Below are positions 14,219 to 32,494 of a stretch of 64,000 nucleotides of DNA, piece after piece. The notes beneath the pieces are model-generated. The model had not been told where the DNA came from, did not search any database, and was given only the letters and a program-made list of their open reading frames with translations. Origin of the DNA: Alphaproteobacteria bacterium (GTDB taxonomy: Bacteria; Pseudomonadota; Alphaproteobacteria; UBA828); NCBI GenBank assembly GCA_965248825.1, contig CBDFKL010000006.1:618667-682666 (forward strand), given 5' to 3'. The position numbers and the translations under genes were made by a program. Each line of letters begins with the position of its first letter. The first letter of the stretch is position 1.

Positions 14219-15928
14219 TCAGCGCAATAGATAGTGTTGGCCGAGCGTGATCCTGTCGATCGGGTCGCAGGTCGCGAGCTCGCCGTCGACGAAGACCTCG
14301 AAGGTCTGAGAATCGACCCGGATGTCGGGGCACGCGTCGTTGTGCAGCATGTCCTTCTTGGTGAGCTTGGTGAAGCTCCCGATCGGCAGGATCGGCTTGG
14401 CGAGGCCGAGGCGCCCGGACACGTCGATATCGAGCGCCCGGCGGTGCGCAAAGGTCGCGCTCAGGGTCTGCGGCGCGCGCCCGTGATAGCCGAACTGAGG
14501 CCGCATCACCACGGGCTCGGTCTGGAAATAGCTTCCCGACGGATCGCCGCTCGCGCCCCAGGCGACGAAGCCGCCCTTGATCACGCCGAACGGCTTGATG
14601 CCGAAGAAGGCCGGGCGCCAGGTCACGAGGTCGGCCATCTTGCCCGGCTCCAGCGAGCCCACATAGCGATCGATCCCGAAGGCGATCGCCGGGTTGATGG
14701 TGTATTTCGCGAGGTAACGCTTGATCCGCTCGTTGTCGGCGTCCTTGGTCTTCTCTTCCGTGAGGCGCCCGCGTTGATCGCGCATCTTGCTCGCGAGCTG
14801 CCAGCACCGCGTGATGACCTCGTTGATCCGCCCCATGCCCTGGCTGTCCGAGCCGAACATGGCGACTGCGCCGATGTCATGCAGCACGTCCTCCGCTGCG
14901 ATCGTCCCGTGGCGCACCCGGCTCTCGGCGAAGGCCACATCTTCCGGAAGGTCGTAGCGCAGCAGGTGACAGGCCATGGTCATATCGAGCTGCTCGTCGA
15001 AGACATTGACCGTGTAGGGGTTGGTCGGATTGGTCGACGACGGCAGGCAATGGGGCTCGCCGTTGCACCGGATGATGTCCGGCGCGTGACCGCCGCCTGA
15101 GCCTTCGGTGTGATACATGTGGATCGTGCGGCCCGCGATCGCCGCCATCGTGTCCTCGTAAAATCCCGATTCGTTCAGCGTGTCGGTGTGGATCTGGACC
15201 GGGAAGTCGTGTTCGGCGGAGGCCCTGAGGCACGCATCGATCGTGGCCGGCATCGCGCCGTAATCCTCATGGATCTTGACGCCGATGATGGCACCGTCGA
15301 GGTGCTCGGCGATGGTCGCCGGATCATGCGATGAACCGCGGCCGAAGAAGCCGAAGTTGATCGGCCATTCCTCCGAGGCTTCGAGCATGCGGTATGTGTT
15401 CCACGGCCCGCCGCAATCGATCGCGAAGAGCGGCCCCATGGTGCCGCCGATCATGGTGGTGAGGCCGCTGGCGAGCGCATGTTCGCACTGGCCCGCCGAC
15501 ATCCAATGCACATGGACGTCGATCCCTCCCGGGGTGACGATCAGGCCGCCGGCCGGGTAGTAGGTGGTATTGGGACCGCAGACCAGATCGGCGTCCACCC
15601 CGTCTTGGGTATTGGGGTTGCCGGCCTTGCCGACGCCCGCGATCTTGCCGTCCTTGATCCCGATATCGGCTTTCACCAAGCCCAGAACCGGATCGATGAT
15701 GGTCGCGTTCTCGACCAGCATGTCGAGCGCGCCATCGGCGCTGGAGGTATGGGCGTCGTAGGACATGCCGTCGCGCATCACGCGGCCGGCGCCGGTCCAG
15801 CACTCATCTCCATAGCTGGTGTAGTCGTGCTCGATCTCGCCGACGAGGGCGGTGTCCCCGAGCCGAATCTTGTCACCCTTGGTGGGCCCGTAATAACGGG
15901 CATAGGTCTCGCGCGCGATCTTCACCAT
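14219..15928 (-). CDS. ureC: Divergent urease alpha-subunit homologue
   Basis: [66 protein letters not shown]; substrate-pocket motifs altered. Confidence 0.92.
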
Positions 15929-15932
15929 GGTC

Positions 15933-16628
15933 TTACGCTCCCCGGAAGCCGCGCGCCTTCGCGCGGGCTATCGCCTGCTCTCTGACCGCCGGAGAGTCGA
16001 TCATGCCCTCCGTGAGACTGTTGAACCCGGTAACCCGGCCACGGCCGCCGATTTTCACCAGCGCCACGTCCTTTTTCTGGCCCGGCTCGAAGCGGACGGC
16101 GGTGCCCGACGGGATATCGAGGCGCATGCCGAAGCTCTCGGCTCGATCGAACTCGAGCGCCCGGTTGATCTCGAAGAAGTGGAAGTGGCTGCCCACCTGG
16201 ACCGGGCGGTCGCCGGTGTTGGTGACCGAGGCACGCGCGGTCCTGCGCCCCGCGTTCAGCTCGATCTCACCCGCCGGCGTGATGATCTCGCCGGCGCGGC
16301 GTCCGGCCGCGGCCTTCTTCTTGCCGGGGCGGATCGGCTGGTGGACGGTGATCAGCTTTGCGCCGTCCGGGAACATGGCCTCGACATGAAGCACCGGAAG
16401 CAGCTCGACCACGCCGGGCATGACATCGTCCGAGCTCAGGATCTCCGCCCCATAGCCCATGAGGTCCTTGAGCGAGCGGCCTTCGCGGGCGGACATGAGT
16501 AGCTCGTCGCAGATATAGGCGATCGCCTCGGGATGGCTGAGCTTGATGCCGCGGCGCTTGTGCTCGCGCGCAAGCTGCGCAGCCATGAAGATGTTGAGCC
16601 GTTCCAGCTCCGTCGGGGTGAGGTTCAT
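15933..16628 (-). CDS. ureAB: Fused urease gamma/beta subunit
   Basis: MNLTPTE...KLSHPEA...[17 protein letters not shown] (gamma), then [19 protein letters not shown]...[15 protein letters not shown] (beta). Confidence 0.92.
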
Positions 16629-16773
16629 CGGCCGTCGTCTCCCCTTCTGTCGCACGCCCGGATGACGAGCACGAGCACCTAGCGTAATCGCCGGAGGCCG
16701 AGGAAAACAGCCGAATTTGCCGCGTGGAGCCGGTGGCATAGACTCGCGGTGAGATGGACAAGGAGCAGAGCCG

Positions 16774-17787
16774 ATGGCAGTGAGGGCGAATCGCCAAATC
16801 GTTCTGGCCGCGAGACCCGCAGGTCCGCCCAAGGAGACGGACTTCAGGCTGATCGAGCAGCCGATCCCGGCGCCGGAGCCCGGCGAGCTTTTGGTGAGAA
16901 CGATCTGGCTCTCGCTCGATCCCTACATACGGCTCAGGATCGGCTCGGACGAGCAGTATTATCCCGCCGTCCCGATCGGCGCGGTGGTGGTCGGCGGCGC
17001 GGTCAGCCGGGTCGTGGAGAGCCGGCACCCCGGCTTCGCGCCGGGCGACATCGTGGACGACTATACGGGCTGGCAGGACTACGCCATCGCCAAGGGCGCA
17101 AGCGCACGCAAGGTCGACCCGGCCCTCGGCCCGCTCTCCACGGCCGTCGGCATTCTCGGCATGCCCGGCCTCACGGCCTATCTCGGTCTGATCAAGGTCG
17201 GCCGGCCCGCCCCCGGCGACACGGTGGTGGTCGCGGCGGCGGCCGGCGCGGTCGGCGCCGTGGTCGGCCAGGTCGCGAAGATTGCCGGTTGCCGGGCGGT
17301 CGGTATCGCGGGCTCGGCGGACAAGCTGCGCCATCTCACCGGCGAGCTCGGTTTCGACGCCGCCATCGACCGCAAGACCGCGGATCTCGGGAGCGCCCTC
17401 GCCGAGGCCTGCCCCGACGGGATCGACGTCTATTTCGAGAATGTCGGCGGGCCGATCGGTGACGCCGTCTATCCGCATCTCGCCCACGGCGCCCGCGTCG
17501 TGATCTGTGGCGGAATCTCCCACTACAACGCGACCGAGCGGCAACAGGTCAACAGCCACCTCGCCAACATCCTGTTCACCGAAGCGCAGGTGCGCGGCTT
17601 CAACATCTTTTCCTACGCGGCGGATTACGAGCAGGCGCGCAAACGGCTCGCGCATTGGCTCAAGGAGGGGCGGCTCGCATTCCGGGAGGATATCGTCGAT
17701 GGTCTGGAAAACGCACCGGCCGCGTTTCAGCGTCTCTTCGACGGCCGCAATTTCGGCAAGCTTCTCATAAGAGTCTCCGCGGAATAG
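16774..17787 (+). CDS. NADP-dependent oxidoreductase (CurA/YncB, prostaglandin-reductase-like MDR)
   Basis: [39 protein letters not shown]. Confidence 0.92.
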
Positions 17788-17863: not shown

Positions 17864-18538
17864 CTATTCGTGCCCGTGGACGTGACGCGCGCCGACACGG
17901 ATGCAAACCGGCACCGGACGATCGACATCCGGGTCCGGCGGCGAGGCGAGCAAGTCCTCCACCTCCTCGAGCACGAGCCCGGTAATATACGGAATCGGCA
18001 GCTCGTAGGACTCGGCAAGCGGTACCCACCTCAGGTCGAGCAGCTCGCCATTGCCGCCGAGCGTGCCGACCATGTCGGTCGACCGGGCCAGGAAGAAGCG
18101 CGCATTGAAGCGCCGCGGCAGCCCCGGCGGCGTGACCGCCCGGTAGATGTAATCGAGCCGGTCGAACGCCGGCGCCAGTCCCGCCGCGTGGAACGGCCGC
18201 CACCCCGGCCGAACCGGGCCGATATCCGGCGGCTCCCGCAGGCCAAGCATGAGCCCGGTCTCCTCGAAGGTTTCGCGCACCGCGGCAGCGGCGAGCGAGC
18301 GGGCCCGCGACGGCGTCGCCGAGCGCGCGAGGCGCGCGGCCACCGCCGGCCTGAGCTCCGTCGCCGGCCGAACCCAGCGATCACAGGCCTCAACGCCGCC
18401 GCCCGGAAACACATAGCTGTCGGGCATGAATACCTGACGTGGCGGGCGCCGGCCCATCAGGACTTCGGGGCCGGCCGCGCCGTCACGCAACAGCACCAGC
18501 GTGGCGGCGTCCTTAGGCCTCCGGCTGCGGCGCTTCAC
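17864..18538 (-). CDS. NUDIX hydrolase
   Basis: RPKDAATL, FMPDSYVFPGG, AAVRETFEETG, TPPGLPRRFNARFF. Confidence 0.9.
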   Translation of the reverse strand: MKRRSRRPKDAATLVLLRDGAAGPEVLMGRRPPRQVFMPDSYVFPGGGVEACDRWVRPATELRPAVAARLARSATPSRARSLAAAAVRETFEETGLMLGLREPPDIGPVRPGWRPFHAAGLAPAFDRLDYIYRAVTPPGLPRRFNARFFLARSTDMVGTLGGNGELLDLRWVPLAESYELPIPYITGLVLEEVEDLLASPPDPDVDRPVPVCIRVGARHVHGHE

Positions 18539-18594
18539 GTCTTGTCACTGCCCGGCCGGTGGCGCGGCGCACCAGTCCGGATCCGCCATCGCTC

Positions 18595-21500
18595 TCAAGC
18601 GATTCCCATCTGCCGAAGCATCGCACGGCAGAGCACGCTGTTCGGCTCCCTGTACTCTTCGAGCACCGTGAAGTGATTGTGGCCGGGTAGATCGACATAG
18701 TGACCTTGAAGGCCGCTTCCGGTCCACGCGGCGAGGTAGGCCTCGGATTGCCGGTGAAACTCCGCAGACTCCTCGCCGCCGAGCGTGACGATCAGCGGCG
18801 ACGCTTGGTCCGGCAGGTGTCGAATGGGACTCATCCGATCGACCTCTTCGGGGGTCAAGCGGAGCGTGGGCTGCAACCAGGAATGCATGAAGGGCTCCAG
18901 GTCGAAGAGGCCGCTGATCGCGGTGCCCCCTTTCACGAGATCGGGCGGCAGTCCGTAATCGCCGGCCCAATCGGTCGCGAGGAGCATTGCCGTCAGATGG
19001 CCGCCTGCCGAATGTCCCGAGACGTAGAGCCGGCTTCGGTTGCCTCCAAACGTCGCGGCATTGCGATAGACCCATGCGGCCGCGGCGCGGTTTTGCCGGA
19101 CGATCTCCGTGATGGTGACGCTCGGGCAGAGCGCATAGTTGTTGATCACGACCGTCACGCCCGCCGACACCAGGCCCTCCGCCACGAAGCTGAACTCCCT
19201 GCTGCTCAGCGAATGCCAATAACCGCCATGGATGAACATGTGGATCGGCGCATCCGGCCGAGCCGCGGGATAGATGTCGAGGGTCTCGGCGTTGGTCGGC
19301 CCAAACTGAACATCGAGCCGGGGCCCGAGCTGCTTCCGGACACGGGCGCTATTGGAGAGGAAGCTGTCCACATAGCGGCCAAAATCGGGCACGGCGCGTT
19401 CTGCATCATATTGCTCGTCGATCTCGGCCTGCGTGCGGAACGAGTGATAGAGGTAAGGACCGACCGGCGGACCTGATCGCGCGTGTACCGGCGCAGCCGG
19501 CGCGCCGGCGCGCACCGCCATCGGCTTGGACGGCCGCCGGAGAGGCCGCCCCTCGCCCGAGAAAGCCGGCAGCCAACGGCTCAGTCTTTGCCCGACCGAG
19601 CCGGTCGTCATGTCCGAAGACCTTCGCCGCCTCGGCGCTCCGTGTCGCTGACGGCGCCGAGAGCGCGCGGCGGCGCGTGCCGCCGCTTTCTCGCTCGCGT
19701 GGAACTCGACCACCGCCGCGCCGCCGCCATAGGTCGGGCCATAAGCGTGGACCGTCGCGCTGTGAAAGCGGCCTCCCATGGCGCCGAGCACCCAGGCGAA
19801 ATGCTTGAAGCCCATGTCGGCGCGGGCATCCCGGACATAGTCGGGCATCAGCGATTTCAGCGACGCGGCGTCGCCCGTGACCATCATGTCAAGAACCCGC
19901 CGGTTCCATTCATCCTCGGCGGCGCTCGCGATGTGATCATCGGCCGGGTCGATTTCTCGACGGAAGCTGGAGCCCGATAGTCCTCCCACGCCGATCACGG
20001 CCACGCGGCGGCCCAGACGGATCGCCTGGTTTGCGGCCATCTCCCCGAGCTTCGAGGTTCGCTCCCAGTCGTGATAGATATTGTTGGCCGCCATCACCAC
20101 CGGCCATGCGCCGCCGGCATTCAGAAACCGGTTGGCAACGAGGCTGCCGGTGTCGATCGGGAACCCGTCGTAATTGACGCCGCGCGCCTTGACCCCGATG
20201 GAACGGCTGGCGGCGATGCAGGCGTCTGCGAGCTCGGTATCGATCTCGATGTCGTAGTCGATCTCGCCAAGCTCGTGCCAATTCTCGTCGACATGGACGC
20301 CGCGGATCCGCGGCCGCGCTTGCCAAAGCTGGTCGAGAACCGCGAGCCATTGGGTTGAGTAGATGAGGAGGACGTCGGGGTTGGCCGCGCGCAGGGCGGC
20401 CGCGGCTTCCTCCAACCCTTCCGCAATGTCGGCCCAGGGCGGCGCGTCTCGCGCGAGCAGCGGCAAGGGGCTCCCGGGAACGAGCAAGGCGGCGACGACG
20501 GCCGGCGCTTCGTCTCGCCGCCGTCGGAAGAACAGCGCGCGTTGAAATCGATCGCCGACGCCGAGCGCCTCGAGGAGTTCATTGCGGCCTTTGTCCGAAT
20601 CGTCGAGATGCCGAAGTGCGTTGACGATGCCCATAAAGCCGCGCGGCAACACGAAAATAATCACGATCGCGGCGATTCCCAAAACCAACAGCGGATATTC
20701 GGTGAACCCCGAAAGCACGCGATCGACACCGACGAATATGGCGGCGCCGACGATCGGGCCGGCCAACGTGCCCATGCCGCCCGCGACCACGATGAATACG
20801 AAATAGGCCGACCAGAAAATCGTGAACGCTGCAGGCGGCGTGATGATCACCGCGTCGATGTAGAACAGGCCCGCTGCGAGACCGCTGAGGCCGCCGGCGA
20901 CGATAAAAACCAGCAGCTTCACCTTGCGGATGTCGATGCCCACGGTCTGCGCCGCTTCTTCGTTGTCGCGCACCGCGGTAAGCGCAAGCCCGTAGCGGCT
21001 CTTGAGGAGCCGCGAGATCACCACCGTCGCAAAGATGAGGAGACCGAGGCCTGCGTAGTACATCTCGATCTGCGTGGCGTCGGTTTTAATCTGCATACCG
21101 CCGCCGGCGCCGACCACCTTCCACTCATTGAAGACCGAACCGACCGCGGCCGCGATCAGCCAGCTTGCGACCGCGAAATAGGCGCCCTGAAGGCGCAAGA
21201 GGGGCAAAGCTCCGAGAAAGATGAGCAGCAGGATGATGACGCGGCGGATGTAGACCTCACCGAAGATGTCGGCTTCGGGGAAGTAGATCAGCGCCACCTC
21301 ATAGCCGGCCCACAACACGCCCGCCGCCGCCACGGGCTTCCAAACCCCGACACCGGTCAAGCTCTCCCGCACCGGTACGGCGAGAAGAAATGCGAACGCC
21401 GCCGTGACAATCCCGGAAATCGGCAACGCCAGCCATACGTTGACGCCCCCATAGTAGAACATGATCGCGAGGGCAAAGCCGCCGATGCCGATATAAACCT

Positions 21501-21711
21501 GGTTTCCGAAAGAGAGCAGCCCGCAATAGCCCGCGAGCAGATTCCAGGCATGGCCGAACACGGCGAACACGAAGAACGTGAATATCAAATAGATCAGATA
21601 GCTCTGATCGCCGACCAGCCACGGTATTGCGATGGCAAAACCAATGAGCGCGGCGAGCAGGCCGCGGCCGCGCCAACCGGTCAGTATCAGGTCGAGCCCC
21701 TGTGCGATCAT
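18595..21711 (-). CDS. Three-domain fusion: LivM-type ABC permease + AmnA-like (LigB-fold) dioxygenase alpha subunit + arylformamidase-like alpha/beta hydrolase
   Basis: Uninterrupted 1038-aa ORF: WNLLAGYCGLLSFG/AVRDNEEAA/GGMGTLAGP (about 21711-20620); VPGSPLP...YSTQW...DMGFKHF...YGPTYG (about 20505-19700); HGGYW, GHSAG, HNHF (about 19456-18595). Confidence 0.85.
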   Translation of the reverse strand: MIAQGLDLILTGWRGRGLLAALIGFAIAIPWLVGDQSYLIYLIFTFFVFAVFGHAWNLLAGYCGLLSFGNQVYIGIGGFALAIMFYYGGVNVWLALPISGIVTAAFAFLLAVPVRESLTGVGVWKPVAAAGVLWAGYEVALIYFPEADIFGEVYIRRVIILLLIFLGALPLLRLQGAYFAVASWLIAAAVGSVFNEWKVVGAGGGMQIKTDATQIEMYYAGLGLLIFATVVISRLLKSRYGLALTAVRDNEEAAQTVGIDIRKVKLLVFIVAGGLSGLAAGLFYIDAVIITPPAAFTIFWSAYFVFIVVAGGMGTLAGPIVGAAIFVGVDRVLSGFTEYPLLVLGIAAIVIIFVLPRGFMGIVNALRHLDDSDKGRNELLEALGVGDRFQRALFFRRRRDEAPAVVAALLVPGSPLPLLARDAPPWADIAEGLEEAAAALRAANPDVLLIYSTQWLAVLDQLWQARPRIRGVHVDENWHELGEIDYDIEIDTELADACIAASRSIGVKARGVNYDGFPIDTGSLVANRFLNAGGAWPVVMAANNIYHDWERTSKLGEMAANQAIRLGRRVAVIGVGGLSGSSFRREIDPADDHIASAAEDEWNRRVLDMMVTGDAASLKSLMPDYVRDARADMGFKHFAWVLGAMGGRFHSATVHAYGPTYGGGAAVVEFHASEKAAARAAARSRRRQRHGAPRRRRSSDMTTGSVGQRLSRWLPAFSGEGRPLRRPSKPMAVRAGAPAAPVHARSGPPVGPYLYHSFRTQAEIDEQYDAERAVPDFGRYVDSFLSNSARVRKQLGPRLDVQFGPTNAETLDIYPAARPDAPIHMFIHGGYWHSLSSREFSFVAEGLVSAGVTVVINNYALCPSVTITEIVRQNRAAAAWVYRNAATFGGNRSRLYVSGHSAGGHLTAMLLATDWAGDYGLPPDLVKGGTAISGLFDLEPFMHSWLQPTLRLTPEEVDRMSPIRHLPDQASPLIVTLGGEESAEFHRQSEAYLAAWTGSGLQGHYVDLPGHNHFTVLEEYREPNSVLCRAMLRQMGIA

Positions 21712-22625
21712 CGCGAAAAGAGACCCTGTGGGCGGACGGCGAGCACGAACAAGATCAACATGTAACCGGCGACGAGTTGCGCGGAGGGGCCGAAATATGT
21801 CCCGGCAAGCACTTGGGTGATCCCGAGCAGAACGCCGCCGACGAGGCTGCCGGCAATCGATCCGAGGCCGCCGACGATGACGACGCCGAACGCGATCAGG
21901 AGGAACTGCGGCCCGTCAAACGGTTGAAACGTGCGCGACATCCCCACCGCAACGCCGGCGACACCGGCGACCGCGAGGGAGATGGCACTCGCGATCGCGT
22001 AGATCCGATCGGTGCGGATTCCCATGAGAGAGGCCATCTCGGGGTCGTCCGACGCCGCTCGGATGGCCCGCCCCGCATGGGTGCGATGCAGGAACAGATG
22101 GACGCCCACCAGGATCGCAACGGCGGTGCAGAAGAAGATCAGGCGCAGGGTCGAAATGCTGAGATCCTGCGTCAGACGAATTGCCGAATAGCTCAGCGCA
22201 TTCTTAATCACCGTGGCGTCGGAGGCGAAGATCCCGAGTAGTGCATGAGCGATCACGATCGACACGCCGAAGGTCACCAGAATCGGAGACATGAGCCCGA
22301 AATTGGACGACATGCCCTTCTCTTCCATCGCCTGAACGGAGACCCGATTCAGCACATGGCGTTGCAGCCCGTAGCCGATCGCGAACATGGCGGGCACGAC
22401 CACGATCAGCGAGACGAAGGGCGGGAAACCGAGATACTGGACGGTGACGGCGGCGATATATGCCGCGACGATGAGCCAATCGCCATGAGCCAGATTGACC
22501 AGGCGCATGACGCCGAACACGAGCGCGAGGCCGAGGCTGATAATGGCGTAATAGCCGCCCAGCATGGCGCCGGAGAGAAGTCCGTTGGCGATGTCGATGA
22601 GCGTCCAGTAGAGGTCTTCGCTCAT
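21708..22625 (-). CDS. Branched-chain-amino-acid-type ABC permease (LivH-like)
   Basis: GLALVFGVMRLVNLAHG, GRAIRAASDD, VIVGGLGS. Confidence 0.93.
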   Translation of the reverse strand: MSEDLYWTLIDIANGLLSGAMLGGYYAIISLGLALVFGVMRLVNLAHGDWLIVAAYIAAVTVQYLGFPPFVSLIVVVPAMFAIGYGLQRHVLNRVSVQAMEEKGMSSNFGLMSPILVTFGVSIVIAHALLGIFASDATVIKNALSYSAIRLTQDLSISTLRLIFFCTAVAILVGVHLFLHRTHAGRAIRAASDDPEMASLMGIRTDRIYAIASAISLAVAGVAGVAVGMSRTFQPFDGPQFLLIAFGVVIVGGLGSIAGSLVGGVLLGITQVLAGTYFGPSAQLVAGYMLILFVLAVRPQGLFSR

Positions 22626-23392
22626 CAGCCGAAGCTCTCCATTCCAACCCCGAAATATGCGGCGCTGACCTGCTCCTCGGTAAACTCGGTGGGCTTACCC
22701 TCCAGCACGACTTGACCTTCGAGCATCACGAACACCTGTGATGCGACGCCGAGCGCGCGTTTCATGTCCTGTTCGATCACGATCACCGTCACGCCGCGGT
22801 CGTGGATCTGGCTGACCTTCTGATAGATGTCGTCAACCACGAACGGGGCCAGGCCGAGCGACAACTCGTCGAACAGGATCAGCTCAGGCGACGACATCAG
22901 GGCCCGCCCGACGGCCACCATTTGCTGCTCGCCGCCGGACATCTCCGAGACGATCTGCCGTCGACGCTCGGCCAGGATGGGAAACAGCGCGTAGACCTCG
23001 TCCAGCCGCTCCTTCAGATCGGCCCGACAGCGAGGCAGGTAGGCCCCCGCCATGAGGTTTTCTTGCACCGAGAGCCGCGAGAATAGGCGGCGTCCTTCGG
23101 GCACCATGGCGATGCCCGCATTGACGATGTCCTCGGTCGCGAGGTGCTCGATGGCGCGGCCTTCGAACTCGATCCTTCCCTCGATACGAGCGAGGCGGCC
23201 GCGGTTCATCAACCCCACCAAGGATTTCAGCAGGGTGGTCTTACCCGCGCCGTTCGCACCGATAATCGAGAGAATCTCGCCGCGCTCGATCTCGAAACCG
23301 ATATTGGTGAGCGCACGAAGCTCGCCGTAATAGGCGGAAAGACCCGCGACTTTGAGAAGCGGTCCGTCGTCTTCAGGCGCCAAGATAGACAC
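22625..23392 (-). CDS. ABC ATP-binding protein (LivF-like)
   Basis: GANGAGKTT, PEGRRLF, MSGGEQQM, DELSLGLAP. Confidence 0.93.
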   Translation of the reverse strand: MSILAPEDDGPLLKVAGLSAYYGELRALTNIGFEIERGEILSIIGANGAGKTTLLKSLVGLMNRGRLARIEGRIEFEGRAIEHLATEDIVNAGIAMVPEGRRLFSRLSVQENLMAGAYLPRCRADLKERLDEVYALFPILAERRRQIVSEMSGGEQQMVAVGRALMSSPELILFDELSLGLAPFVVDDIYQKVSQIHDRGVTVIVIEQDMKRALGVASQVFVMLEGQVVLEGKPTEFTEEQVSAAYFGVGMESFG

Positions 23393-24089
23393 GGCGAACT
23401 TCCGATGCGTTTATCACCTCCTGCGGTGGCCCGGAGACCAAAAGCCGTCCCGCGTCCAAGGCGATGAGACGGTCGGTCGCGGTCAGCATGGTCTTCATCA
23501 CATGCTCGATCCACACCACCGTGATGCCCGAATCCCTAATGCCGCGAATGAGCTCGATGAACCGCTCGACCTCGGCATCGGTCAGCCCGGCCGCCACCTC
23601 GTCGATCAGAATGAGTTTGGGTTGCATGGCGAGTGCGCGCGCGAGCTCGTGGCGCTTGCGGGTAAGAAGCGGCAATCGGCCGGCGAGCGTGTTGCGCTCC
23701 GCCCGCAGCTCCATCGCCGCGATGACGCGTTCGACCCAGGCCGCCGCCGCCGCCTCATCCAAATCGCCGCCGAACCGAGCGGCGACCATGAGGTTGTCGA
23801 GCACGGTCATATGGGTGAACGGGCGCGGGATCTGATAGGTCCGGGCGAGACCCGCGCGGGCGCGATCGTGGGCCGGCAACCGGGTTAAATCGGCACCGTC
23901 GAATCGGATGTGCCCGGAATCGGCCCGGATGTTACCGGCGAGCAGGCCGAACAGCGTGGTCTTCCCGGCGCCATTCGGCCCAATGATCCCGAGTATCTCG
24001 CCTTGCCGTACGTCGAAGGAAATCCGGTCGGCGACCTTCAACGCGCCGAAAGATTTGCAAAGCCGAGAAACGTTCAGAATTTCGGTCAT
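23373..24089 (-). CDS. ABC ATP-binding protein (LivG-like)
   Basis: GPNGAGKTT, ARTYQIPRPF, DEVAAGL, IEHVM, YLG end. Confidence 0.93.
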   Translation of the reverse strand: MTEILNVSRLCKSFGALKVADRISFDVRQGEILGIIGPNGAGKTTLFGLLAGNIRADSGHIRFDGADLTRLPAHDRARAGLARTYQIPRPFTHMTVLDNLMVAARFGGDLDEAAAAAWVERVIAAMELRAERNTLAGRLPLLTRKRHELARALAMQPKLILIDEVAAGLTDAEVERFIELIRGIRDSGITVVWIEHVMKTMLTATDRLIALDAGRLLVSGPPQEVINASEVRRVYLGA

Positions 24090-24147
24090 CGTGCCGGACA
24101 GACGAAAGACCAAGACGGCGTACACATTTCGGACCATCCCTACGGAC

Positions 24148-24189: not shown

Positions 24190-25449
24190 CTATTGCTGGT
24201 AGAGGCGCATCTCCGCCGTCTTCATCACGTCCGGATAGACGGCGTTGTAGACGTTGTCCTTGACCCAGCGGTTTGTCTCGGAATCTACCCGCCACTGGGC
24301 GCCGCCGAGCGGTTGAACCGAATAGTGCTGCTCGTTGAACGAGACCCGACCGACAACCGTATCGAGATCAGTCTCGCTCAAGGCCTGGAGGAGCGCCGCC
24401 CGATCGGTCGTGCCCGCCCGCTGCAAAGCGTCGAACAGCACGTCATAGGAGGCGTCCGTATAGGCCAGCGGCGGCGAGTAATATTTGTCGGGATTGGCGC
24501 TCTCATAGGCATCGACCAATCCCTGGCCCGTGTAGCCGCCATATTTCGACGAGCCCGGATAGGCCGGCGACCAGAAATTCACGCTCAGGATGTCGATTCC
24601 GAATTCGCCGAGCGCGCGCATCGCCTCCGGATAACCGGTCGCTTTGTCGATGATGTACATCCGCGGCTTGAAGCCGGCTTGAGCGGCTTGTTGCAGATAG
24701 TTCTGCAAGTCGGGCGGCGCCAGCACGCCGGTAACGACCTCGACCCGCCCACGCTTGAACTTGTTGATGATCGCCGAGAAATCGGGAATGCCCTGCTCGA
24801 AGCGGCCGGGATCGACCGGCTCCCAACCCTCGCCCTTGAAGGTCGGATCGAAGAGGCTCGCGAAGACCACGCCGTCCGGGTCGTTCGGATAGAGATAGCC
24901 GATCTTCCCGTTAAACCCACCGGGCAGGGACTTGATCATCCCGACGTGATTGGCCACCAGGTCCGGCACACCGAAGAAGAAATGGTGCGTGTAGCTATAG
25001 GTCTTCGGTTTACCGTCGGGGCCGAACAGCCACGCCTCGACCGGCGTATTCGACGTGATGCAAGGCACCTCATAGCGCTCGCACAAGTCGGACGGCGCGT
25101 TGGTCGTGTCGGGTGTGCCTTGGGCGAAGACCACGTCAACTTTCTCGGCCAGGATCGCCCGTGTCGCGGCCTCACCGGAGCCGGCCATCGTGCCCTTCGA
25201 ATCGAAGATCTCGAATTCGATCTTGCACTGCTGATCACCGACCTGCAGACCGCCGGCCTCGTTGATGGGGTCGACCTTGTTGTGGTCCAGCCAGGGGGTC
25301 TCGCGCCCCATGTCGAGGAGCGGACCGGTGAGCGGCACCACGCGCCCGACCGTGACGACGCACGCCTCGGCCGCCGCGACGGGCGCTGCCTGCCAGAACG
25401 CGCTCACGAAAGCCATCGCGAATGCCGCAAGTAAGAGTAGCTTCTTCAT
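24190..25449 (-). CDS. ABC substrate-binding protein (Liv/HAAT type I periplasmic fold)
   Basis: MKKLLLLAAFA signal peptide, VGRVVPLTGP, DSK, DFSAIINKFK, DTVVGRVSF. Confidence 0.9.
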   Translation of the reverse strand: MKKLLLLAAFAMAFVSAFWQAAPVAAAEACVVTVGRVVPLTGPLLDMGRETPWLDHNKVDPINEAGGLQVGDQQCKIEFEIFDSKGTMAGSGEAATRAILAEKVDVVFAQGTPDTTNAPSDLCERYEVPCITSNTPVEAWLFGPDGKPKTYSYTHHFFFGVPDLVANHVGMIKSLPGGFNGKIGYLYPNDPDGVVFASLFDPTFKGEGWEPVDPGRFEQGIPDFSAIINKFKRGRVEVVTGVLAPPDLQNYLQQAAQAGFKPRMYIIDKATGYPEAMRALGEFGIDILSVNFWSPAYPGSSKYGGYTGQGLVDAYESANPDKYYSPPLAYTDASYDVLFDALQRAGTTDRAALLQALSETDLDTVVGRVSFNEQHYSVQPLGGAQWRVDSETNRWVKDNVYNAVYPDVMKTAEMRLYQQ

Positions 25450-25477
25450 CTTCATCTCCCCGGTTCGTTTTTCTGCT

Positions 25478-26290
25478 CTACACTTTGAATTCGACGACGG
25501 CGGCACCAGCACCATAGGTCGGACCGTAGGCGTGAATACGGGCGCCATAGTAGCGGCCGCCGGTCGCGCCCTGGATCCACGCGAAATGCTTGAAGCCCAT
25601 ATCGACTCTTGCTTCCGCTGCGTAGTCCGCGCAGATCCGCTCGACCTCCTGCGTCTCGCCTTTCTCCAGGAGGTTCAGAACACGCCGGTTCCAACGGTCG
25701 TCTTCATCGCTCGCGATGCGGTCGCCAGCGATATCGATCTCGTCACGGAAAATTGTGCCCGAAAGGCCGCCGACGGCCACAGCCGCGAACCGCTTGCCCT
25801 GCGCAATTGCGGCCTCTGCGGCTGCAGTCCCGATTCGTTGGGTGGTCTCGAAGTCATGATAGAGATTGTTCGCCGCCAGCACGAAGCGCTGCCCGCCGCC
25901 GGGGTCAAGACTGTTGCTGGCGACGATCGCCCCGGTATCGACCGGGAACTCATCGTAGTCGACCCCTTTCGAGCGAATCCCAAGCGCGTTGGCACTCTCG
26001 ATGCACGCATGGGCGAGTTCGGTGTCGATGTGCAGGTCGAACGGCAGGTCGCCAAACTCGTACCAGTTTTCGTCGACATGCACCCCCTGCAGCCGGGGGC
26101 TTTCCTGCCAAAGCTCGTCGAGTACCGCTATCCACTGAGTGGAGTAGAGAAGAACGGCATCCGGACGCGCCGCGGCGAGCGCGCGGGCGGCTTTTTCGTA
26201 GCCGGCGGCAAGCGCCGACCACGGCGGGTTGTCCTTACGCAAATACGGCAGAGGAGAGCCCGGGACCAGGAACGCGGCGACGAGGCTCAT
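25478..26290 (-). CDS. amnA: 2-aminophenol 1,6-dioxygenase alpha (non-catalytic) subunit
   Basis: VAAFLVPGSPLP, YSTQWIAVLD, HVDENW, ANNLYH, DMGFKHFAW; follows amnB. Confidence 0.88.
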   Translation of the reverse strand: MSLVAAFLVPGSPLPYLRKDNPPWSALAAGYEKAARALAAARPDAVLLYSTQWIAVLDELWQESPRLQGVHVDENWYEFGDLPFDLHIDTELAHACIESANALGIRSKGVDYDEFPVDTGAIVASNSLDPGGGQRFVLAANNLYHDFETTQRIGTAAAEAAIAQGKRFAAVAVGGLSGTIFRDEIDIAGDRIASDEDDRWNRRVLNLLEKGETQEVERICADYAAEARVDMGFKHFAWIQGATGGRYYGARIHAYGPTYGAGAAVVEFKV

Positions 26291-26292
26291 TG

Positions 26293-27321
<1,029 letters not shown>

Positions 27322-27357
27322 TCAAAACAAGCGGCACCCGCCAGAGCGCCGTCCTAA

Positions 27358-29370
27358 CCCGACTTCCGCAACTCGGGGGTCATGAAGGTTTTAACCCATT
27401 GATTTTCCGCGATCGGACCCCCAAAGGTCGGCACTACAGGGCGCCGAAGGGAGAGGCGTTCCGTGCGCCGTCAGGCGGAGATCCGCGGCGCGGGTTGTTT
27501 CGGCAGGGTCAAGCCAAGCTGGTGCAGCAGTAATTCGTGCTCCTTGTTCGGCCGGGTGTGGCGCGGCAGGACGAGGTGCCGGCCGTCGATGGTCGGCAGG
27601 TGGACGTCCACCATCTGGATGGTGGCGAACGTCTTGAGGATGGCGCGTGGGGTGAGGCCAGCGGCGTGTGGCCGGGCGAGGTTCTTCAGGGTGACGAGCA
27701 GGCAGTAGGCGATGAATGAGACGAAGATGTGCGCCTCGATCCGCTCTTCGCGCTGATGGAAGATGGGCCGGATCGCGAGGTCGTGCTTGAGTTCCTTGAA
27801 CGCCTGCTCGATCTCGATGAGCTGCATGTACAGGCGCCAGAGCGTGGCGGGATCTTCGGCGACCATGTTGGATCGCAACAGATAGCGGCCCTCGCGGCGG
27901 CGTACGCGGCGCAGCCGGTCGCGCCGCAGGCGGAATGAGAAGCCGTCCGCAGCGAGCTCCTTGTCGGTCTCGGGCACACCGATGTCGACCAGGCTCCAGG
28001 CCCGGCCCGCTTCCTTCTTGGCGGCACCGAGCTTGAGCATCAGCTGATCCCGGCTGTTGGACTGGCGTTGCAGCTCGCCCAGCCGGCGCCACAGTTTCTT
28101 CAGCCGGCGCCGGCGCATGCCGCGTTCCTTGAGGAGCCGCCCCTCGCTGCGCACCAGGACGTAAAGCTCTCCGTCTTCGGCCAACAGCTTGACGTCTACG
28201 GACTGGCGCACCTCCTGCCAGGGCAGGTCCAGGAACGCCTTCTCAAGCCGCGTCAGCCGGCCCTTGGGCGTGCCCACCAGATAGCGCACCGGCGCATCGC
28301 CCTCGCGCATCAAGGCCAGCGTCTCCTCGGTGGGAATGCCGCGGTCCATGATCCAGATCCGGTCGGAGCGACCGTATTGCCGTTCGATCTTCTCCAGGAA
28401 CTCCGCCAGCGTGGTCTGGTCGGCGGTGTTCCCCGGCATCACCTCGTAGGCCAGCGGAAAGCCCTCGGGCGTCACGATCAGCGCGATCACCACCTGCACG
28501 CAGTCCGGGCGCCTGTCCCGGCTGTAGCCGAACCGGCGCTTGTCCTCGAACGGCGGGTCGCTCTCGAAGTAGGTCGAGGTCAGGTCGTACAGCAGCACAT
28601 CGAAGCGCACGTCGAACAGCGTCGCCCAACGGGCGCGAAGGAACGAGAAGAACTCCTGCTTATGGAGCAGCAGCTTGTCGAGGCAGCGATACAGCGTGTC
28701 GTCGGCGATCGCCCGATCGCAGCCCAGAAGATCGCGCAACGCGCTGTGCTCGTACCAGTGACGGTGGAGACGCCACTCGCTCCCCGGGTCGATCAGTCGG
28801 TAGCAGACCTGGATCTTCAGGATGTCCAGCCACCTCGTGCCTTGACGGCTCGGGGTCAGGCGCGGGCCCCAGAAGCGGTCCAGATCAAGCCGATCCCACA
28901 GGACCAGGGCCAGCCAGCACGCCCCCCATTGGCGCGGGTCGTGCAGGGCCACGTCCGCGACGTTGATCTTGACCACCTCGCAGTCCAGCGCCGGCGCCTC
29001 CCGATCCTCGGGAAACAGCGCCATCTGCCGAGACCCCGACTTGCCCTCCACAACCTCGATCGAGCGGCACCACGCCGCGCGCTGGCTGTCGTTGATCTCG
29101 CCGAGATGGAGAACGTGGCGCTGAACAACGCGGCCGCCGCGGACCCGGACGTTCTCCACCACGCTCCAGTAGCGGTGCTCCTTGCCGTCCTTAAAGCGTC
29201 TCTTGCAGCGCACGAACATGAGGGTAGCGTCCGGCGCTTCGCCAGCACAATCAAGGGGGTAGGTCGGCACTACACGCGGTTCCGGAGAGCCAAAGACCGG
29301 AAATCCGCCACTTTCCGGGCCGAAAAACCGTCAAATTAGCCGAATGCCGTGCCGAGTTGCGGAAGTAGGG
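27358..29370 (-). mobile_element. IS1634-family insertion sequence, apparently intact
   Basis: 19-bp terminal IRs CCC(G/T)ACTTCCGCAACTCGG (1 mismatch), flanked by CTAA on both sides. Confidence 0.9.
27471..29219 (-). CDS. IS1634-family DDE transposase
   Basis: MFVRCKRRFKDGKEHRYWSVVE, LYDLTSTYFE, GYSRDRRPD, IMDRG, IEQAFKELK, RPIFHQ. Confidence 0.93.
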   Translation of the reverse strand: MFVRCKRRFKDGKEHRYWSVVENVRVRGGRVVQRHVLHLGEINDSQRAAWCRSIEVVEGKSGSRQMALFPEDREAPALDCEVVKINVADVALHDPRQWGACWLALVLWDRLDLDRFWGPRLTPSRQGTRWLDILKIQVCYRLIDPGSEWRLHRHWYEHSALRDLLGCDRAIADDTLYRCLDKLLLHKQEFFSFLRARWATLFDVRFDVLLYDLTSTYFESDPPFEDKRRFGYSRDRRPDCVQVVIALIVTPEGFPLAYEVMPGNTADQTTLAEFLEKIERQYGRSDRIWIMDRGIPTEETLALMREGDAPVRYLVGTPKGRLTRLEKAFLDLPWQEVRQSVDVKLLAEDGELYVLVRSEGRLLKERGMRRRRLKKLWRRLGELQRQSNSRDQLMLKLGAAKKEAGRAWSLVDIGVPETDKELAADGFSFRLRRDRLRRVRRREGRYLLRSNMVAEDPATLWRLYMQLIEIEQAFKELKHDLAIRPIFHQREERIEAHIFVSFIAYCLLVTLKNLARPHAAGLTPRAILKTFATIQMVDVHLPTIDGRHLVLPRHTRPNKEHELLLHQLGLTLPKQPAPRISA

Positions 29371-29371
29371 C

Positions 29372-29648
29372 TAACACTCGGCCGGGTCCTCGACGAGATC
29401 CTGGCCGACGGCTCGGAGACCCGTTCGGCGGTCGTGGCGATCCGGCCATTGATGCTGACCGACCCGCAACACCCGTGGCGGCGCATCCGGGCACGCGCCG
29501 GGCTCGACGACGTGCGCATCCTCGATCTCCGTTACAGCTTCGCCTCGCGCGCGATACCGTCAAGGCCTCCGCCGCCCGCATCGGCGACAGCATCGAACGC
29601 GATCTGGAGGCGGTGGAAGACGACAGCAACGAGGCAGCAGCTCGATAG
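29372..29648 (+). pseudogene. Internally deleted tyrosine-integrase C-terminal remnant
   Basis: LGRVLDE..AVVAIRPLMLT | PWRRIRARAGLDDVRILDLRYSFASRA (degenerate HDLRH) | second frame ARDTVKASAARIGDSI. Confidence 0.7.
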
Positions 29649-29660
29649 TGCCGACGCGCT

Positions 29661-29960
29661 TCACGATATCGTCAGAGCATCTACATCACGGCCGCCGTAA
29701 AGAATTCTGAGGAACGTCACGGTGTCCGCGCTCACATGGAAAGCGATGGTCACCCGTCGCTCGAAACCGATGACCCGCAGGCCGGGAAACAGGTCGTCCC
29801 GCCGCATACCTCGTTCCGGAAAATCCGCAAACTCCCGACAATAGGTCTCGATGCGTTCCACATAGGCCATGGCCCGACCGGCGTCCGCACGCTCGGCGAT
29901 GAACAGGTACAGGTCCTTGAGATCGTCGCGGGCTTCGGGCGCGAAGACGACCTTATGCAT
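29661..29960 (-). CDS. parE: RelE/ParE-family toxin
   Basis: VVFAPEARDDLKDLYLFIA, FPERGMRRDDL, LRILYGGRD. Confidence 0.9.
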   Translation of the reverse strand: MHKVVFAPEARDDLKDLYLFIAERADAGRAMAYVERIETYCREFADFPERGMRRDDLFPGLRVIGFERRVTIAFHVSADTVTFLRILYGGRDVDALTIS

Positions 29961-30243
29961 CGCGTCCGGGGTTCTTCACACGCCCGGCGTGGAGGTCTCG
30001 GATTTCGCCGAAGACCCGGTCGGCGGAGATCGCGCGTCCGGGATCGGACCCCATTGCGGCCGCGACCGGCACGACCTCTTCGCGCAGCCAGCGCTCGACG
30101 GCAGCGTCGCGTTCCTGCAAGGCCCGCAGGCCCGCGCGTATCACTTCGCTGCTCGTGGCATAGGCGCCGGAGGCGACGAGGCTATCGATATATCTTGCCT
30201 GTTCGCCGGGCAGGCTGAATGTCCGTTTATGGGAAGCCGCCAT
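29953..30243 (-). CDS. parD: ParD-family RHH antitoxin
   Basis: RTFSLP...IDSLVASGAYATSSEVIRAGLRALQERD; overlaps the toxin start. Confidence 0.88.
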   Translation of the reverse strand: MAASHKRTFSLPGEQARYIDSLVASGAYATSSEVIRAGLRALQERDAAVERWLREEVVPVAAAMGSDPGRAISADRVFGEIRDLHAGRVKNPGRDA

Positions 30244-30259
30244 CGTCAAAACCTTCAGG

Positions 30260-30277
30260 TGAGATGATCTTCTCTCA
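30260..30277. promoter_or_regulatory. Palindrome upstream of parD, candidate operator
   Basis: TGAGA-N8-TCTCA in an AT-rich patch 17 nt before the ATG. Confidence 0.35.
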
Positions 30278-30409
30278 TGGTGTGATAATTTCATACTCAA
30301 TTCCAGGGCCGCGTGATCCCCGCAACAATCGCCGGTGAGTACCCGTTGTTGGGTAAATCACAGTCCGTCCGCGTCGACCGCGACTTGCGCGTTGTAGCAC
30401 CGGCGAAAC

Positions 30410-30618: not shown

Positions 30619-31020
30619 CCTCGACGATTTGTGGAAATCGAAGGTCATTTCGACCGTGGCTCCAAGGGGGAGGGCGTGAACGCCGACAGCGGTTCGCGCC
30701 GGCGGTTGAATATCCTCGGTGAACACGGCCTCCCAGGCCTCGTTGATCGCCGGGAATTGCTCGAAAACCGTGGTGTAGATGGTCGCCGATACCATGTTCT
30801 CCAAGCCAAGGCCGATCTCGGGCAACGCGGAAACGAGGTTATGAAGGATCTTCGCCGCCTCCGGCCCCGGTCCGCCCGCCTCCAGGGCGCCGGTCTCGGG
30901 GTCGAGCGCGATCATTCCGGCGAAGCGATAGAGCGGCCCCGCCTTGATGCAAGGGCTATAGCGAAAACGCGGCCGCGGCAGAGCCTCAGCAAAGACGGCG
31001 ACCGGGCTACAACTTGACAC
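30616..31020 (-). CDS. RidA/YjgF-family protein, candidate 2-aminomuconate deaminase (AmnD-like)
   Basis: PRFRYSP, AGMIALDP, FPAINEAW, PARTAVGVHALPLGATVE (catalytic Arg kept); overlaps the dehydrogenase stop; GTG start estimated. Confidence 0.8.
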   Translation of the reverse strand: MSSCSPVAVFAEALPRPRFRYSPCIKAGPLYRFAGMIALDPETGALEAGGPGPEAAKILHNLVSALPEIGLGLENMVSATIYTTVFEQFPAINEAWEAVFTEDIQPPARTAVGVHALPLGATVEMTFDFHKSSR

Positions 31021-32494
31021 AGATGTTTCTCTGCTCCGCGTAGAAGTTGAGCGAATGAAGCCCACCCTCGCGGCCGATCCCGGACAATTTGACTCCGCCG
31101 AACGGCGTTCGCAGATCGCGGAGGAACCAGCAATTGATCCAGACGATGCCGACGCGAATCCGGCGCGCCACGCGGTGCGCGCGCGACAGATCTCGAGTCC
31201 ATAGCGCGGTCGCGAGGCCGTACTCGCTGTCGTTCGCGCGCGCGATCGCCTCGTCTTCGCCGTCGAACGGCGCGATGTGGCAGACCGGCCCGAATATCTC
31301 CTCGCGCACACAACGCGCGCCGTCGGAGAGGCCGGTCCAAATCGTCGGCTGTATATAAGACCCGCCGTCGCGCTCGTCTCCGAACCCCGGCACGCCGCCG
31401 CCGGTCACGACGTCCGCACCCTCCTCGACGGCGAGATCGTAATACGCGCGCACCTTCGCACGATGCTCGGCGGAGATGAGCGGCCCCGTCGTGCATTCTT
31501 CGGCCCACGGGTCGGCAAGAACGAGCGCCTCGGCCCGTTCCTTCAATGCCGAGACGAAACGCTCATAAATCGGGCGCTCGACATAGATGCGCTCGGAACT
31601 GAGGCAGACCTGCCCGCAGTTTGCGAACACCGATCGCGTGGTGCCTTCGATCGCGGCGTCGAAATCGGCATCGGCAAAAATGACCGCCGCGTTCTTTCCG
31701 CCGAGCTCGAACGAAAGCGGCTTCACGGTATCGGCGGCCGCCTTCATGATGGCGGCGCCCGTCTTGCTTTCGCCGGTGAAGGTGAGCGCGTCGATCCCGG
31801 GGTGGCGAGACAGCCATTCGCCCGCTGAATCAGGCCCGAAGCCATGCACCACATTGAATACGCCGGGCGGTACGCCGGCGCTGTCCATCACCTCGGCGAG
31901 CAGGGTCGCGGTTGCGGGCGTCTCCTCGGACGGTTTGGCAACAACCGTGTTCCCGCTGGCGAGCGCAGGCGCAACCTTCCAGGTGAGCAGGAGCAGCGGC
32001 AGGTTCCATGGTGCGATGACGCCGACCACGCCGTGCGGCTCTCGAACCGTGTAGTTCAATGCGCCCCGACCATCGGGCGTATCCATCTCGAAGCAGTCGG
32101 TCCCGGCGGTGCCGATCAAATCGGCGAAGAGCCGAAAATTGGCCGCTCCTCGGGGGATGTCGACGGCTCGAGCGAGAGAAGCCGGCTTGCCCGTATCGGC
32201 CACTTCGGCCGTGAGGAAATCATCGAAGCGCGCCTCAATCCCGTCGGCGACCCTGTGAAGCAGCGTGCAGCGCTCGGCGACCGGCATCACGCGCCACGCC
32301 GTTTCAAGGGCATGCCGTGCCGCCAGGACGGCGGCATCGACGAGCGGCCGGTCCGCTTCATGCACCCGAGCGACGATCGCGCCGTTCACCGGCGTCACGT
32401 CGTCAAACAGCCTGTCGGTCGCCTCGAAACGGCCGCCGACATAGTTGCTCAGCTCCTTGATGCCCGGATAGGTCTCGGTCGCGTGCGTGGCCAT
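31007..32494 (-). CDS. amnC: 2-amino/2-hydroxymuconic 6-semialdehyde dehydrogenase (AmnC/DmpC family)
   Basis: DIPRGAANF, PWNLPLLLLTWKVAPALA, KPSEETP, ELGGKN, GQVCL, WFLRDLRTPFGG. Confidence 0.88.
   Translation of the reverse strand: MATHATETYPGIKELSNYVGGRFEATDRLFDDVTPVNGAIVARVHEADRPLVDAAVLAARHALETAWRVMPVAERCTLLHRVADGIEARFDDFLTAEVADTGKPASLARAVDIPRGAANFRLFADLIGTAGTDCFEMDTPDGRGALNYTVREPHGVVGVIAPWNLPLLLLTWKVAPALASGNTVVAKPSEETPATATLLAEVMDSAGVPPGVFNVVHGFGPDSAGEWLSRHPGIDALTFTGESKTGAAIMKAAADTVKPLSFELGGKNAAVIFADADFDAAIEGTTRSVFANCGQVCLSSERIYVERPIYERFVSALKERAEALVLADPWAEECTTGPLISAEHRAKVRAYYDLAVEEGADVVTGGGVPGFGDERDGGSYIQPTIWTGLSDGARCVREEIFGPVCHIAPFDGEDEAIARANDSEYGLATALWTRDLSRAHRVARRIRVGIVWINCWFLRDLRTPFGGVKLSGIGREGGLHSLNFYAEQRNICVKL

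Follow-up and report, generated by a model that had tools for sequence, protein, structure and literature searches.

Among the closest described relatives of the system considered here is 2-aminophenol 1,6-dioxygenase, which opens the aromatic ring in the 2-aminophenol pathway and is built from a non-catalytic alpha subunit (AmnA) and a catalytic beta subunit (AmnB). According to PMC10470539, neither subunit of a related AmnAB is soluble alone, and in the tetramer two alpha/beta pairs meet by way of their beta subunits. That source also reports that the ring-cleavage product cyclises spontaneously to picolinate, that actinobacteria appear to enclose the pathway in a microcompartment, and that the pathway has so far been shown only in nitrobenzene and chlorobenzene degraders. 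Because the product is unstable and enclosure of the pathway in a microcompartment has been proposed, spatial coupling has both a rationale and a precedent. This analysis concerns a stretch of 64,000 nucleotides from an alphaproteobacterium (assembly GCA_965248825.1, contig CBDFKL010000006.1), hereafter the window, in which a predicted second alpha subunit, here called AmnA′, is fused to a permease of an ATP-binding cassette (ABC) importer and to a putative serine hydrolase in a single open reading frame (ORF).

Like the alpha subunits of AmnAB and CnbCaCb (3VSG-3VSJ, 8IHG, 7TXY), the fused domain is full-length and lacks the iron ligands, and amnC- and amnD-like genes accompany it. The alpha subunits of those enzymes, however, are free, soluble proteins of ~270 amino acids (aa), whereas here the second alpha is carried on an ABC permease together with a hydrolase, in an operon with the importer. 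The transporter genes resemble those of LivHMGF/LivJ-type importers, with the same two BPD_transp_2 permeases, two ATPases and Peripla_BP_6 protein in the usual operon form, but LivM has ~680 extra residues, which are enzyme-derived and predicted to be cytoplasmic. Judging from the operon, the substrate of the importer in the window is probably aromatic. The hydrolase has HGG, GxSxG and Ser-Asp-His in common with HSL family IV esterases and AFMID kynurenine formamidase (9N8R, 2PBL, 4E11; HaHSL), but differs from these in that its best NCBIfam match, HaHSL_fam, lies below the cut-off (166 vs 320 bits) and in that it is fused or operon-linked to the aminophenol pathway.

Two further systems resemble the arrangement in function. 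In the ARO microcompartment of Actinobacteria, as set out in PMC10470539, confinement of 2-aminophenol meta-cleavage is likewise proposed and is argued from the instability of the semialdehyde and its loss to picolinate; the means there are a protein shell and, on AmnB, a putative encapsulation extension, whereas here it would be a transporter tether, and in other phyla. In AmpG1-Slt of Acinetobacter baumannii (PMC13507758), catalysis is coupled to import by an extra permease domain to which a soluble enzyme from the pathway binds. That domain, however, is periplasmic and has no paralogy to an enzyme subunit, the enzyme works on its substrate ahead of import, and the permease belongs to the major facilitator type. 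Transporter-enzyme coupling is known; what is novel here is coupling via a duplicated pseudo-enzyme subunit on the permease of an ABC importer. A preliminary description of the window, made by a model from the sequence, knew of no such fusion, and searches of one literature library listed no paper describing a permease-AmnA fusion. The architecture is nevertheless widespread in genomes, and it is already visible in automated database names for two-domain members ('permease subunit / aromatic ring-opening dioxygenase').

The ORF at 18595..21711 of the window (reverse strand) begins with ATG and encodes 1038 aa with 0 internal stops. Three parts are recognised by Pfam above the curated cut-offs: BPD_transp_2 at residues 165-355 (E 3e-26), LigB at residues 423-654 (E 1.8e-15) and BD-FAE/Abhydrolase_3 at residues 811-938 (E 3e-15 and 2e-12). 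These calls bear out the stop-free reading frame with a LivM-type permease, an AmnA paralogue, a linker and a hydrolase that had been reported in the preliminary description; the motifs HGGYW, GHSAG, GGEES and HNHF listed there begin at residues 828, 899, 978 and 1011, and its Arg/Ala-rich linker of about 80 aa is found at residues 673-752 (80 aa; 17 Arg, 14 Ala, 10 Pro). Within the linker, GC content is flat across codon positions (0.75/0.76/0.75), against the usual high third-position GC of the flanking domains. Among homologues the linker varies in length and cannot be aligned, and the AlphaFold predicted local distance difference test (pLDDT) score is <50 for residues 691-759, covering most of it.

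Comparisons also show that the fusion is real and evolutionarily conserved, and the comparative data alone exclude an artefact. In a whole-protein search of a large protein collection, for which figures refer to the best 120 clusters with the query included, 51 clusters have all three domain families (988-1043 aa, 57-83% identical), 65 have the permease and LigB only (665-741 aa), and four are long (936-1011 aa) yet have only two Pfam families. In these last four (P0029, P0047, P0052 and P0057) the two families are the permease and LigB, and P0057 has its third part out of frame; in some assemblies the hydrolase domain of such proteins has probably been frameshifted or is decaying. In the homologue alignment, two-domain proteins terminate at the exact end of a free AmnA, and three-domain proteins continue through the unalignable linker into a hydrolase that starts at a conserved LYRxFxTQxEID motif.

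Scanning prokaryotic genomes, one for each species, brought up 50 loci, spanning Rhodospirillales, Sneathiellaceae, Azospirillaceae, Ferrovibrionaceae, Devosia, Paracoccaceae/Roseobacteraceae, Cohaesibacteraceae, Burkholderiales and Ectothiorhodospiraceae. A LigB domain is fused behind the permease in 46 of these, from Alpha-, Beta- and Gammaproteobacteria, and in 14 species-level loci, additional to the protein clusters above, the three domains are in one frame. Since the fusion recurs in many independent assemblies, it is far beyond chance or assembly error. The other four loci comprise three that are interrupted by contig ends and one (L053) with an unfused LivM and without amn genes; an amn-linked unfused LivM was found in none of the 50. 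In L053 (L053:6092-11116, Paraburkholderia sp. JHI869) the related transporter, whose unfused LivM is 401 aa long, adjoins an intradiol (catechol-type) dioxygenase and two IS110-family transposases, and is only weakly informative as a clue to the substrate.

Mapping of reads across the junctions, which the preliminary description had proposed alongside the search of domain architectures, was approached with contigs from four public runs. Both fusion junctions are covered, with 0 differences and 0 gaps; in run X1, for example, two pieces of 1542 nt and 2016 nt span 18400-19795 and 19780-21795, respectively. The four runs represent one sample from one study; the window itself may derive from this sample, and the runs provide no independent support. 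At 19766-19809 the contigs break in all four runs, with short pieces of much higher depth (13-60) at the break. This position holds the codons for a GFKHFAW motif common to fused and free AmnA, and a word repeated between the two AmnA paralogues may split the assembly graph there.

Sequence comparison identifies the LigB part as a full-length, non-catalytic AmnA-type alpha subunit of 2-aminophenol 1,6-dioxygenase. It is 57% identical to the product of the stand-alone ORF at 25478-26290 (270 aa; 153/267, no gaps), and differs from the free soluble subunit of ~270 aa in occupying residues 404-672 of a 1038-aa membrane protein. Recounting gives 39 identities in the first 60 aligned residues instead of the 40 first reported, and the close paralogy claimed from that count is borne out. 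In the PDB, AmnA′ matches alpha subunits (3vsg_A, E 3.1e-100; 8ihg_B, E 3.9e-90) far ahead of beta subunits (only about 1e-22 to 1e-24). Its score to 3vsg_A (338 bits) is close to that of the free AmnA (332 bits; E 2.3e-98), and AmnB (26293-27288) matches the catalytic beta subunit, 3vsg_B (E 1.7e-166). His31, His80 and Glu269 of AmnB are invariant in 35/35 sequences and are equivalent to residues 13, 62 and 251 in the solved structure of the beta chain. These three residues, which we take from the CnbC structure to be the iron ligands, are replaced in AmnA′ by Gly413, Gln454 and Asp632, as in free AmnA copies, and this substitution argues that AmnA′ is a non-catalytic alpha subunit, in line with the earlier proposal.

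The fused copy is always an addition to the ordinary enzyme. A free alpha gene lies beside amnB in 36/36 loci that include amnB, and the fused copy is never the sole alpha. When 46 fused and 37 free alpha sequences are placed in one tree with six beta subunits as the root, the free copies form one clade, with a Shimodaira-Hasegawa-like approximate likelihood ratio test (SH-aLRT) value of 91, and the fused copies form an unresolved basal grade on longer branches than the free ones, with matching sub-groups in both sets. One ancient duplication, with both copies inherited together thereafter, would account for this pattern, although the tree is no proof of it.

The third part is, by sequence, a serine hydrolase of the HSL family IV/AFMID-like group with an intact triad. 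The oxyanion motif (HGG, 828-830) and the triad (Ser901, Asp937, His1013) are present, and H828, G829, G830, W832, S901, D937 and H1013 are identical in 38/38 aligned fused and free homologues. The motifs on which the kynurenine formamidase-like assignment had been based are present, but the closest matches are esterases deposited or named as lipases. The best PDB match is 9n8r ('Lipase 1', E 2.2e-44), followed by 2pbl (putative esterase, 9e-21), with 4e11, the Drosophila kynurenine formamidase, third (6e-16). A formamidase label is not warranted on this evidence, and since the domain is closer to esterases than to kynurenine formamidase, an arylformamidase-like activity is one possibility.

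The distribution of the hydrolase is a Rosetta-stone pattern. Where the interval between the binding-protein and ATPase genes is covered, a separate hydrolase gene is present there in 19/20 two-domain loci, the exception being L030, and in 0/13 three-domain loci. In the hydrolase tree, the fused domains form one clade (15 rows, SH-aLRT 95) and the free proteins another (21 rows, 98). As the gene is free in two-domain loci and gone from that position in three-domain loci, and each set is a single clade, the sequences indicate that one relocation and fusion event joined a standing operon hydrolase to the permease protein. Additional paralogues occur. The window's own genome contains two adjacent, divergently oriented paralogues of the hydrolase domain far from the window (3493524-3495371, loci L003 and L004; 281 and 326 aa, 46-50% identical). 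In two two-domain loci, a second hydrolase paralogue lies upstream of amnC/amnB (L020:879-1778 and L041:209-1189), beside the copy between the binding protein and the ATPases, and these extra hydrolases form their own clade (SH-aLRT 99).

The gene order in the window, which recurs in related loci, is amnC-amnD-amnB-amnA-binding protein-ATPases-livH-livM::amnA′, and the ATG of the fusion overlaps the livH stop codon (ATGA). From the operon order and the pattern of fused and free hydrolases, a functional link between the importer, AmnA′, the hydrolase and AmnAB is very well supported, as the preliminary description had supposed.

The permease part has a BPD_transp_2 score of 92.6 bits (cut-off 26.8). 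Its NCBIfam scores for LivM (100 bits vs cut-off 366) and UrtC (95 vs 296) are both far below those cut-offs, and equivalence to either, with branched-chain amino acid or urea specificity, is not assigned. AlphaFold predicts 12 long helices in residues 13-354, eight before and four after a basic conserved loop (238-260), which we take to be the ATPase-coupling loop. The tail at 355-403 contains 9 Lys/Arg including RRRR, with 9 in the 42 residues after the last helix; it is variable among homologues and has pLDDT <50 at 356-362, 369-376 and 382-402. Lys/Arg are frequent in the loop and tail and near zero in alternate loops. The eight and four helices around a basic loop, together with the basic tail, point to a permease with both termini inside. 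In the pathway as characterised, AmnA, AmnB, AmnC and AmnD all work in the cytoplasm, and free orthologues of the hydrolase start right at the conserved LYRxF motif, without a signal peptide. With the predicted topology, these observations make it reasonable to place the AmnA′ and hydrolase domains in the cytoplasm, the side that the preliminary description's proposal called for. No LivM-ATPase fusion, which would have provided another topology argument, was found among the 5048 ORFs of ≥250 aa in the genome.

Docking of AmnB on the fused domain was modelled with AmnB (16-sequence alignment) and residues 400-672 (19-sequence alignment) in three runs with three controls. The interaction prediction score from aligned errors (ipSAE) is 0.90 (runs 0.90, 0.90 and 0.89), against 0.23 for the best control; the pass mark used is reached by 58/80 solved complexes and 2/110 mismatched pairs. 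Contacts agree between runs at ≥94%, and partner pLDDT is ≥94. The 31 contact positions of the model were then compared with the other 236 positions in the sequence alignment. In fused copies of the window's type (n=37) the mean frequency of the top residue is 0.78 at contacts and 0.67 elsewhere, a level of conservation reached by 79/5000 random sets; in free AmnA copies (n=37) the values are 0.83 and 0.71 (17/5000 random sets). When each fused domain is matched to the free AmnA of its own operon, identity averages 0.73 at contacts and 0.53 elsewhere, with contacts higher in 27/27 loci of the window's type (0.77 vs 0.55 in the window itself). According to this model, the predicted AmnB-contact surface is the best-shared part of the two alpha paralogues in the window's type, and docking of AmnB on AmnA′ is moderately supported by computation.

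This does not hold for all fused domains. A divergent subclade of nine (L040, L042-L045, L048, L050, L051 and L054; Devosia, Paracoccaceae, Cohaesibacteraceae and metagenome-assembled genomes) has a LigB part that is 28-34% identical to AmnA, on very long branches; it lies at about 11.1-12.0 kb of each locus. Here conservation is lower at contacts (0.47) than at the rest (0.59). Judged by the sequences, the docking surface appears to have been lost while the domain has stayed fused and open, which suggests that in these proteins it is either decaying or has a second, AmnB-independent role. A degenerate interface, which the preliminary description had named as part of a case against docking, is predicted for this subclade; in the window's type the contacts are preserved.

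Taking these data together, the best reading of the ORF is a 2-aminophenol dioxygenase tethered to the transporter, along with a hydrolase that is tethered too and unmasks the substrate, with a probability of roughly 0.58. On this reading, which includes a single inner-membrane protein composed of a permease, an AmnA-type domain, a flexible tether and a serine hydrolase, the fusion probably brings the enzymes that start the breakdown to the entry point of the substrate. For its working we infer AmnB binding, hybrid assembly, a cytoplasmic location, an order of reactions, channelling and a substrate as follows. The binding-protein-dependent importer would bring in a 2-aminophenol derivative, and the tethered hydrolase, or the free one in other lineages, would strip an acyl or ester group from the imported conjugate. 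The hydrolase is put before ring cleavage because the characterised core pathway (AmnAB, AmnC and AmnD) works without a serine hydrolase and because this one is located at the transporter. AmnA′ would bind the AmnB of the operon through the normal alpha/beta interface, anchoring 2-aminophenol 1,6-dioxygenase at the importer exit, and AmnB on AmnA′ would cleave the ring at the membrane. The tethered alpha′-beta pair may join a soluble alpha-beta pair through the beta subunits, and such a hybrid alpha′-beta:beta-alpha assembly would explain the constant presence of free AmnA. AmnC and AmnD would then carry the unstable semialdehyde to 4-oxalocrotonate. More tentatively, the permease-borne pseudo-enzyme subunit could recruit catalytic AmnB into a hybrid enzyme on the cytoplasmic side of the transporter, where reactive aminophenol, once freed by the tethered hydrolase, would be cleaved on entry with none building up free in the cytoplasm; this stronger form is somewhat less likely than not.

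A number of observations weigh against tethering. The AlphaFold model of the whole fusion protein has a mean pLDDT of 70.5 and a predicted template modelling (pTM) score of 0.40 (input alignment of 19 sequences), and gives no confident domain arrangement; the topology is based on a predicted model and charge counts, and a PDB sequence search with the permease part gave 0 matches at E up to 0.01. The complexes 3VSG/3VSH, 8IHG and 7TXY are solved and alike, and the pass of the docking model, a check that the preliminary description had suggested, may reflect memory of or likeness to them. The contact list comes from the same model, and contacts may be conserved for reasons of fold. Agreement of the window-type consensus with AmnA is 26/31 at contacts and 170/236 at the rest, which is not significant (Fisher p = 0.20). 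In the divergent subclade the consensus equals AmnA at 5/31 contacts and 98/236 other positions (Fisher p = 0.006), and the match to the locus's own AmnA is lower at the interface in 8/8 loci (0.12 vs 0.27); since this subclade keeps the domain, a fused domain can persist without its AmnB-contact surface. Likewise, as free AmnA adjoins AmnB in every locus that includes amnB, AmnB does not need the fused copy. The closest relatives of the hydrolase are generic esterases, and the two-domain locus L030 has no hydrolase within 20 kb.

Three other explanations were considered. The first, in which the long ORF results from faulty assembly or sequencing, or from three genes only recently read through as one, would suit a linker that resembles translated non-coding DNA and the few relatives with an out-of-frame third part (P0057) or with two Pfam families in a long protein (P0029, P0047, P0052), but the 51 three-domain clusters, the 14 further loci in frame and the unchanged public-run contigs across both junctions leave it almost no probability. 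Recurrence at cluster and species level rules it out. It is unlikely, although it deserves more weight than an artefact, that AmnA′ is a cytoplasmic ligand-binding domain rather than a dock for AmnB, one that senses substrate or product (trans-inhibition) or briefly holds imported aminophenol, with the vestigial active-site pocket of the alpha subunit as the site used. The divergent subclade, in which the domain is kept with degenerate contacts, keeps this explanation alive; AmnB always has a free AmnA, and residues outside the modelled interface, such as N544, H547, D548, K636 and H637, are invariant in 19 fusion proteins. A pure sensor, however, would not need the contact surface to be the best-preserved part of the domain, as it is in the window's type, and the known regulatory domains of ABC importers are on ATPase subunits.

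It is quite unlikely that the fusions only secure co-expression, stoichiometry or stability, so that proximity to the transporter brings no gain and the alpha-like domain and the hydrolase act just as their free forms would, or the alpha-like domain does little. The separate hydrolase gene in 19 loci and the longer branches of the fused alpha copies would agree with this, as would the linker, which is disordered, poorly conserved and without coding-type GC periodicity, as former intergenic sequence would be after read-through. Yet the permease and AmnA′ have been kept together across three proteobacterial classes (46/50 loci), the sole unfused LivM being without amn genes; a second, independent fusion put the hydrolase on the same polypeptide, and the interface has been selectively preserved.

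Physical coupling between an importer and the first catabolic enzymes has often been proposed, but seldom has the structure of the genes backed it; in the present case a conserved operon and two fusions of independent origin agree. A docking module in the form of a duplicated pseudo-enzyme subunit would be an unusual route to such a link. If the stronger form of the tethered reading is true, these loci would represent a widespread, undescribed class of ABC importer and a bacterial import-coupled catabolic metabolon made from a duplicated non-catalytic subunit. The finding also suggests a natural substrate of the 2-aminophenol pathway in marine and soil Proteobacteria, which may be a conjugated aminophenol that needs import and unmasking. 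The hypothesis is directly testable, as there is a defined domain (404-672) with a defined partner (AmnB), the two-domain, three-domain and degenerate-interface forms provide natural controls, and at least one cultured carrier, Phaeobacter sp. 11ANDIMAR09 (L049), is on record.

Table 1. Features of the fusion gene and its operon in the window.
Feature	Position	Strand	Evidence
LivM-type permease domain, residues 1-354	20650..21711	-	Pfam BPD_transp_2; AlphaFold helices
Basic tail, predicted cytoplasmic, from last membrane helix to AmnA′ domain, residues 355-403	20503..20649	-	Lys/Arg counts; pLDDT
AmnA′ domain, residues 404-672	19696..20502	-	3vsg_A match; iron-ligand positions; identity to free AmnA
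Disordered Arg/Ala/Pro-rich linker, residues 673-752	19456..19695	-	Composition; pLDDT
Putative serine hydrolase domain, residues 753-1038 and stop codon	18595..19455	-	Pfam; PDB matches; triad
LivH-type partner permease	21708..22625	-	Pfam BPD_transp_2, E 8.5e-35; syntenic in related loci
ABC ATPase genes, two	22625-23392 and 23373-24137	-	Pfam ABC_tran, E 2e-29 and 2.5e-26
Periplasmic substrate-binding protein	24190..25548	-	Pfam Peripla_BP_6, E 2.3e-33
Stand-alone AmnA (alpha)	25478..26290	-	3vsg_A, E 2.3e-98
AmnB (catalytic beta)	26293..27288	-	3vsg_B, E 1.7e-166
AmnD-like RidA-family deaminase	30619..31035 (about)	-	tblastn with L010 orthologue, 75% over 138 aa
AmnC-like 2-hydroxy/aminomuconic semialdehyde dehydrogenase	31007..32494	-	TIGR03216, 853 bits vs cut-off 693

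Some of the neighbouring genes merit comment (Table 1). The ORF listed for the binding protein overlaps the end of amnA, and therefore its true start is probably further downstream. A PDB search with the binding protein picked up Leu/Ile/Val-binding proteins, at weak significance only (E about 6e-5), and offered no clue to what it binds. For the AmnD-like protein, the NCBIfam Rid family match is below the cut-off, and its orthologues have Pfam Ribonuc_L-PSP.

Between amnD and amnB is an IS1634-family insertion element (27355-29373; transposase 27471-29270) whose terminal inverted repeats of 22 nt (27355-27376 and 29352-29373) are 91% complementary. Next to it, ~1.25 kb of DNA (29374-30618) is likewise absent from the close relative L010, in which amnD and amnB are only about 88 bp apart. 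With the insertion in place, amnB, amnA and the transporter genes may be cut off from the upstream promoter.

No match to DmpG_comm, the DmpG-type aldolase communication domain, was found in the genome, which is 100% complete by marker genes, and the usual lower meta-cleavage route may therefore be missing from it. Near the operon there is a CurA-like NADPH enone reductase gene (16774-17787, forward strand; NCBIfam 432.6 bits vs cut-off 440), the product of which could in principle, and speculatively, reduce 4-oxalocrotonate; this gene is not kept beside the operon in L010. Urease structural genes follow just downstream on the reverse strand (14219-16832), with a fused gamma/beta gene at 15933-16832 and alpha at 14219-15928, which are unrelated to the fusion.

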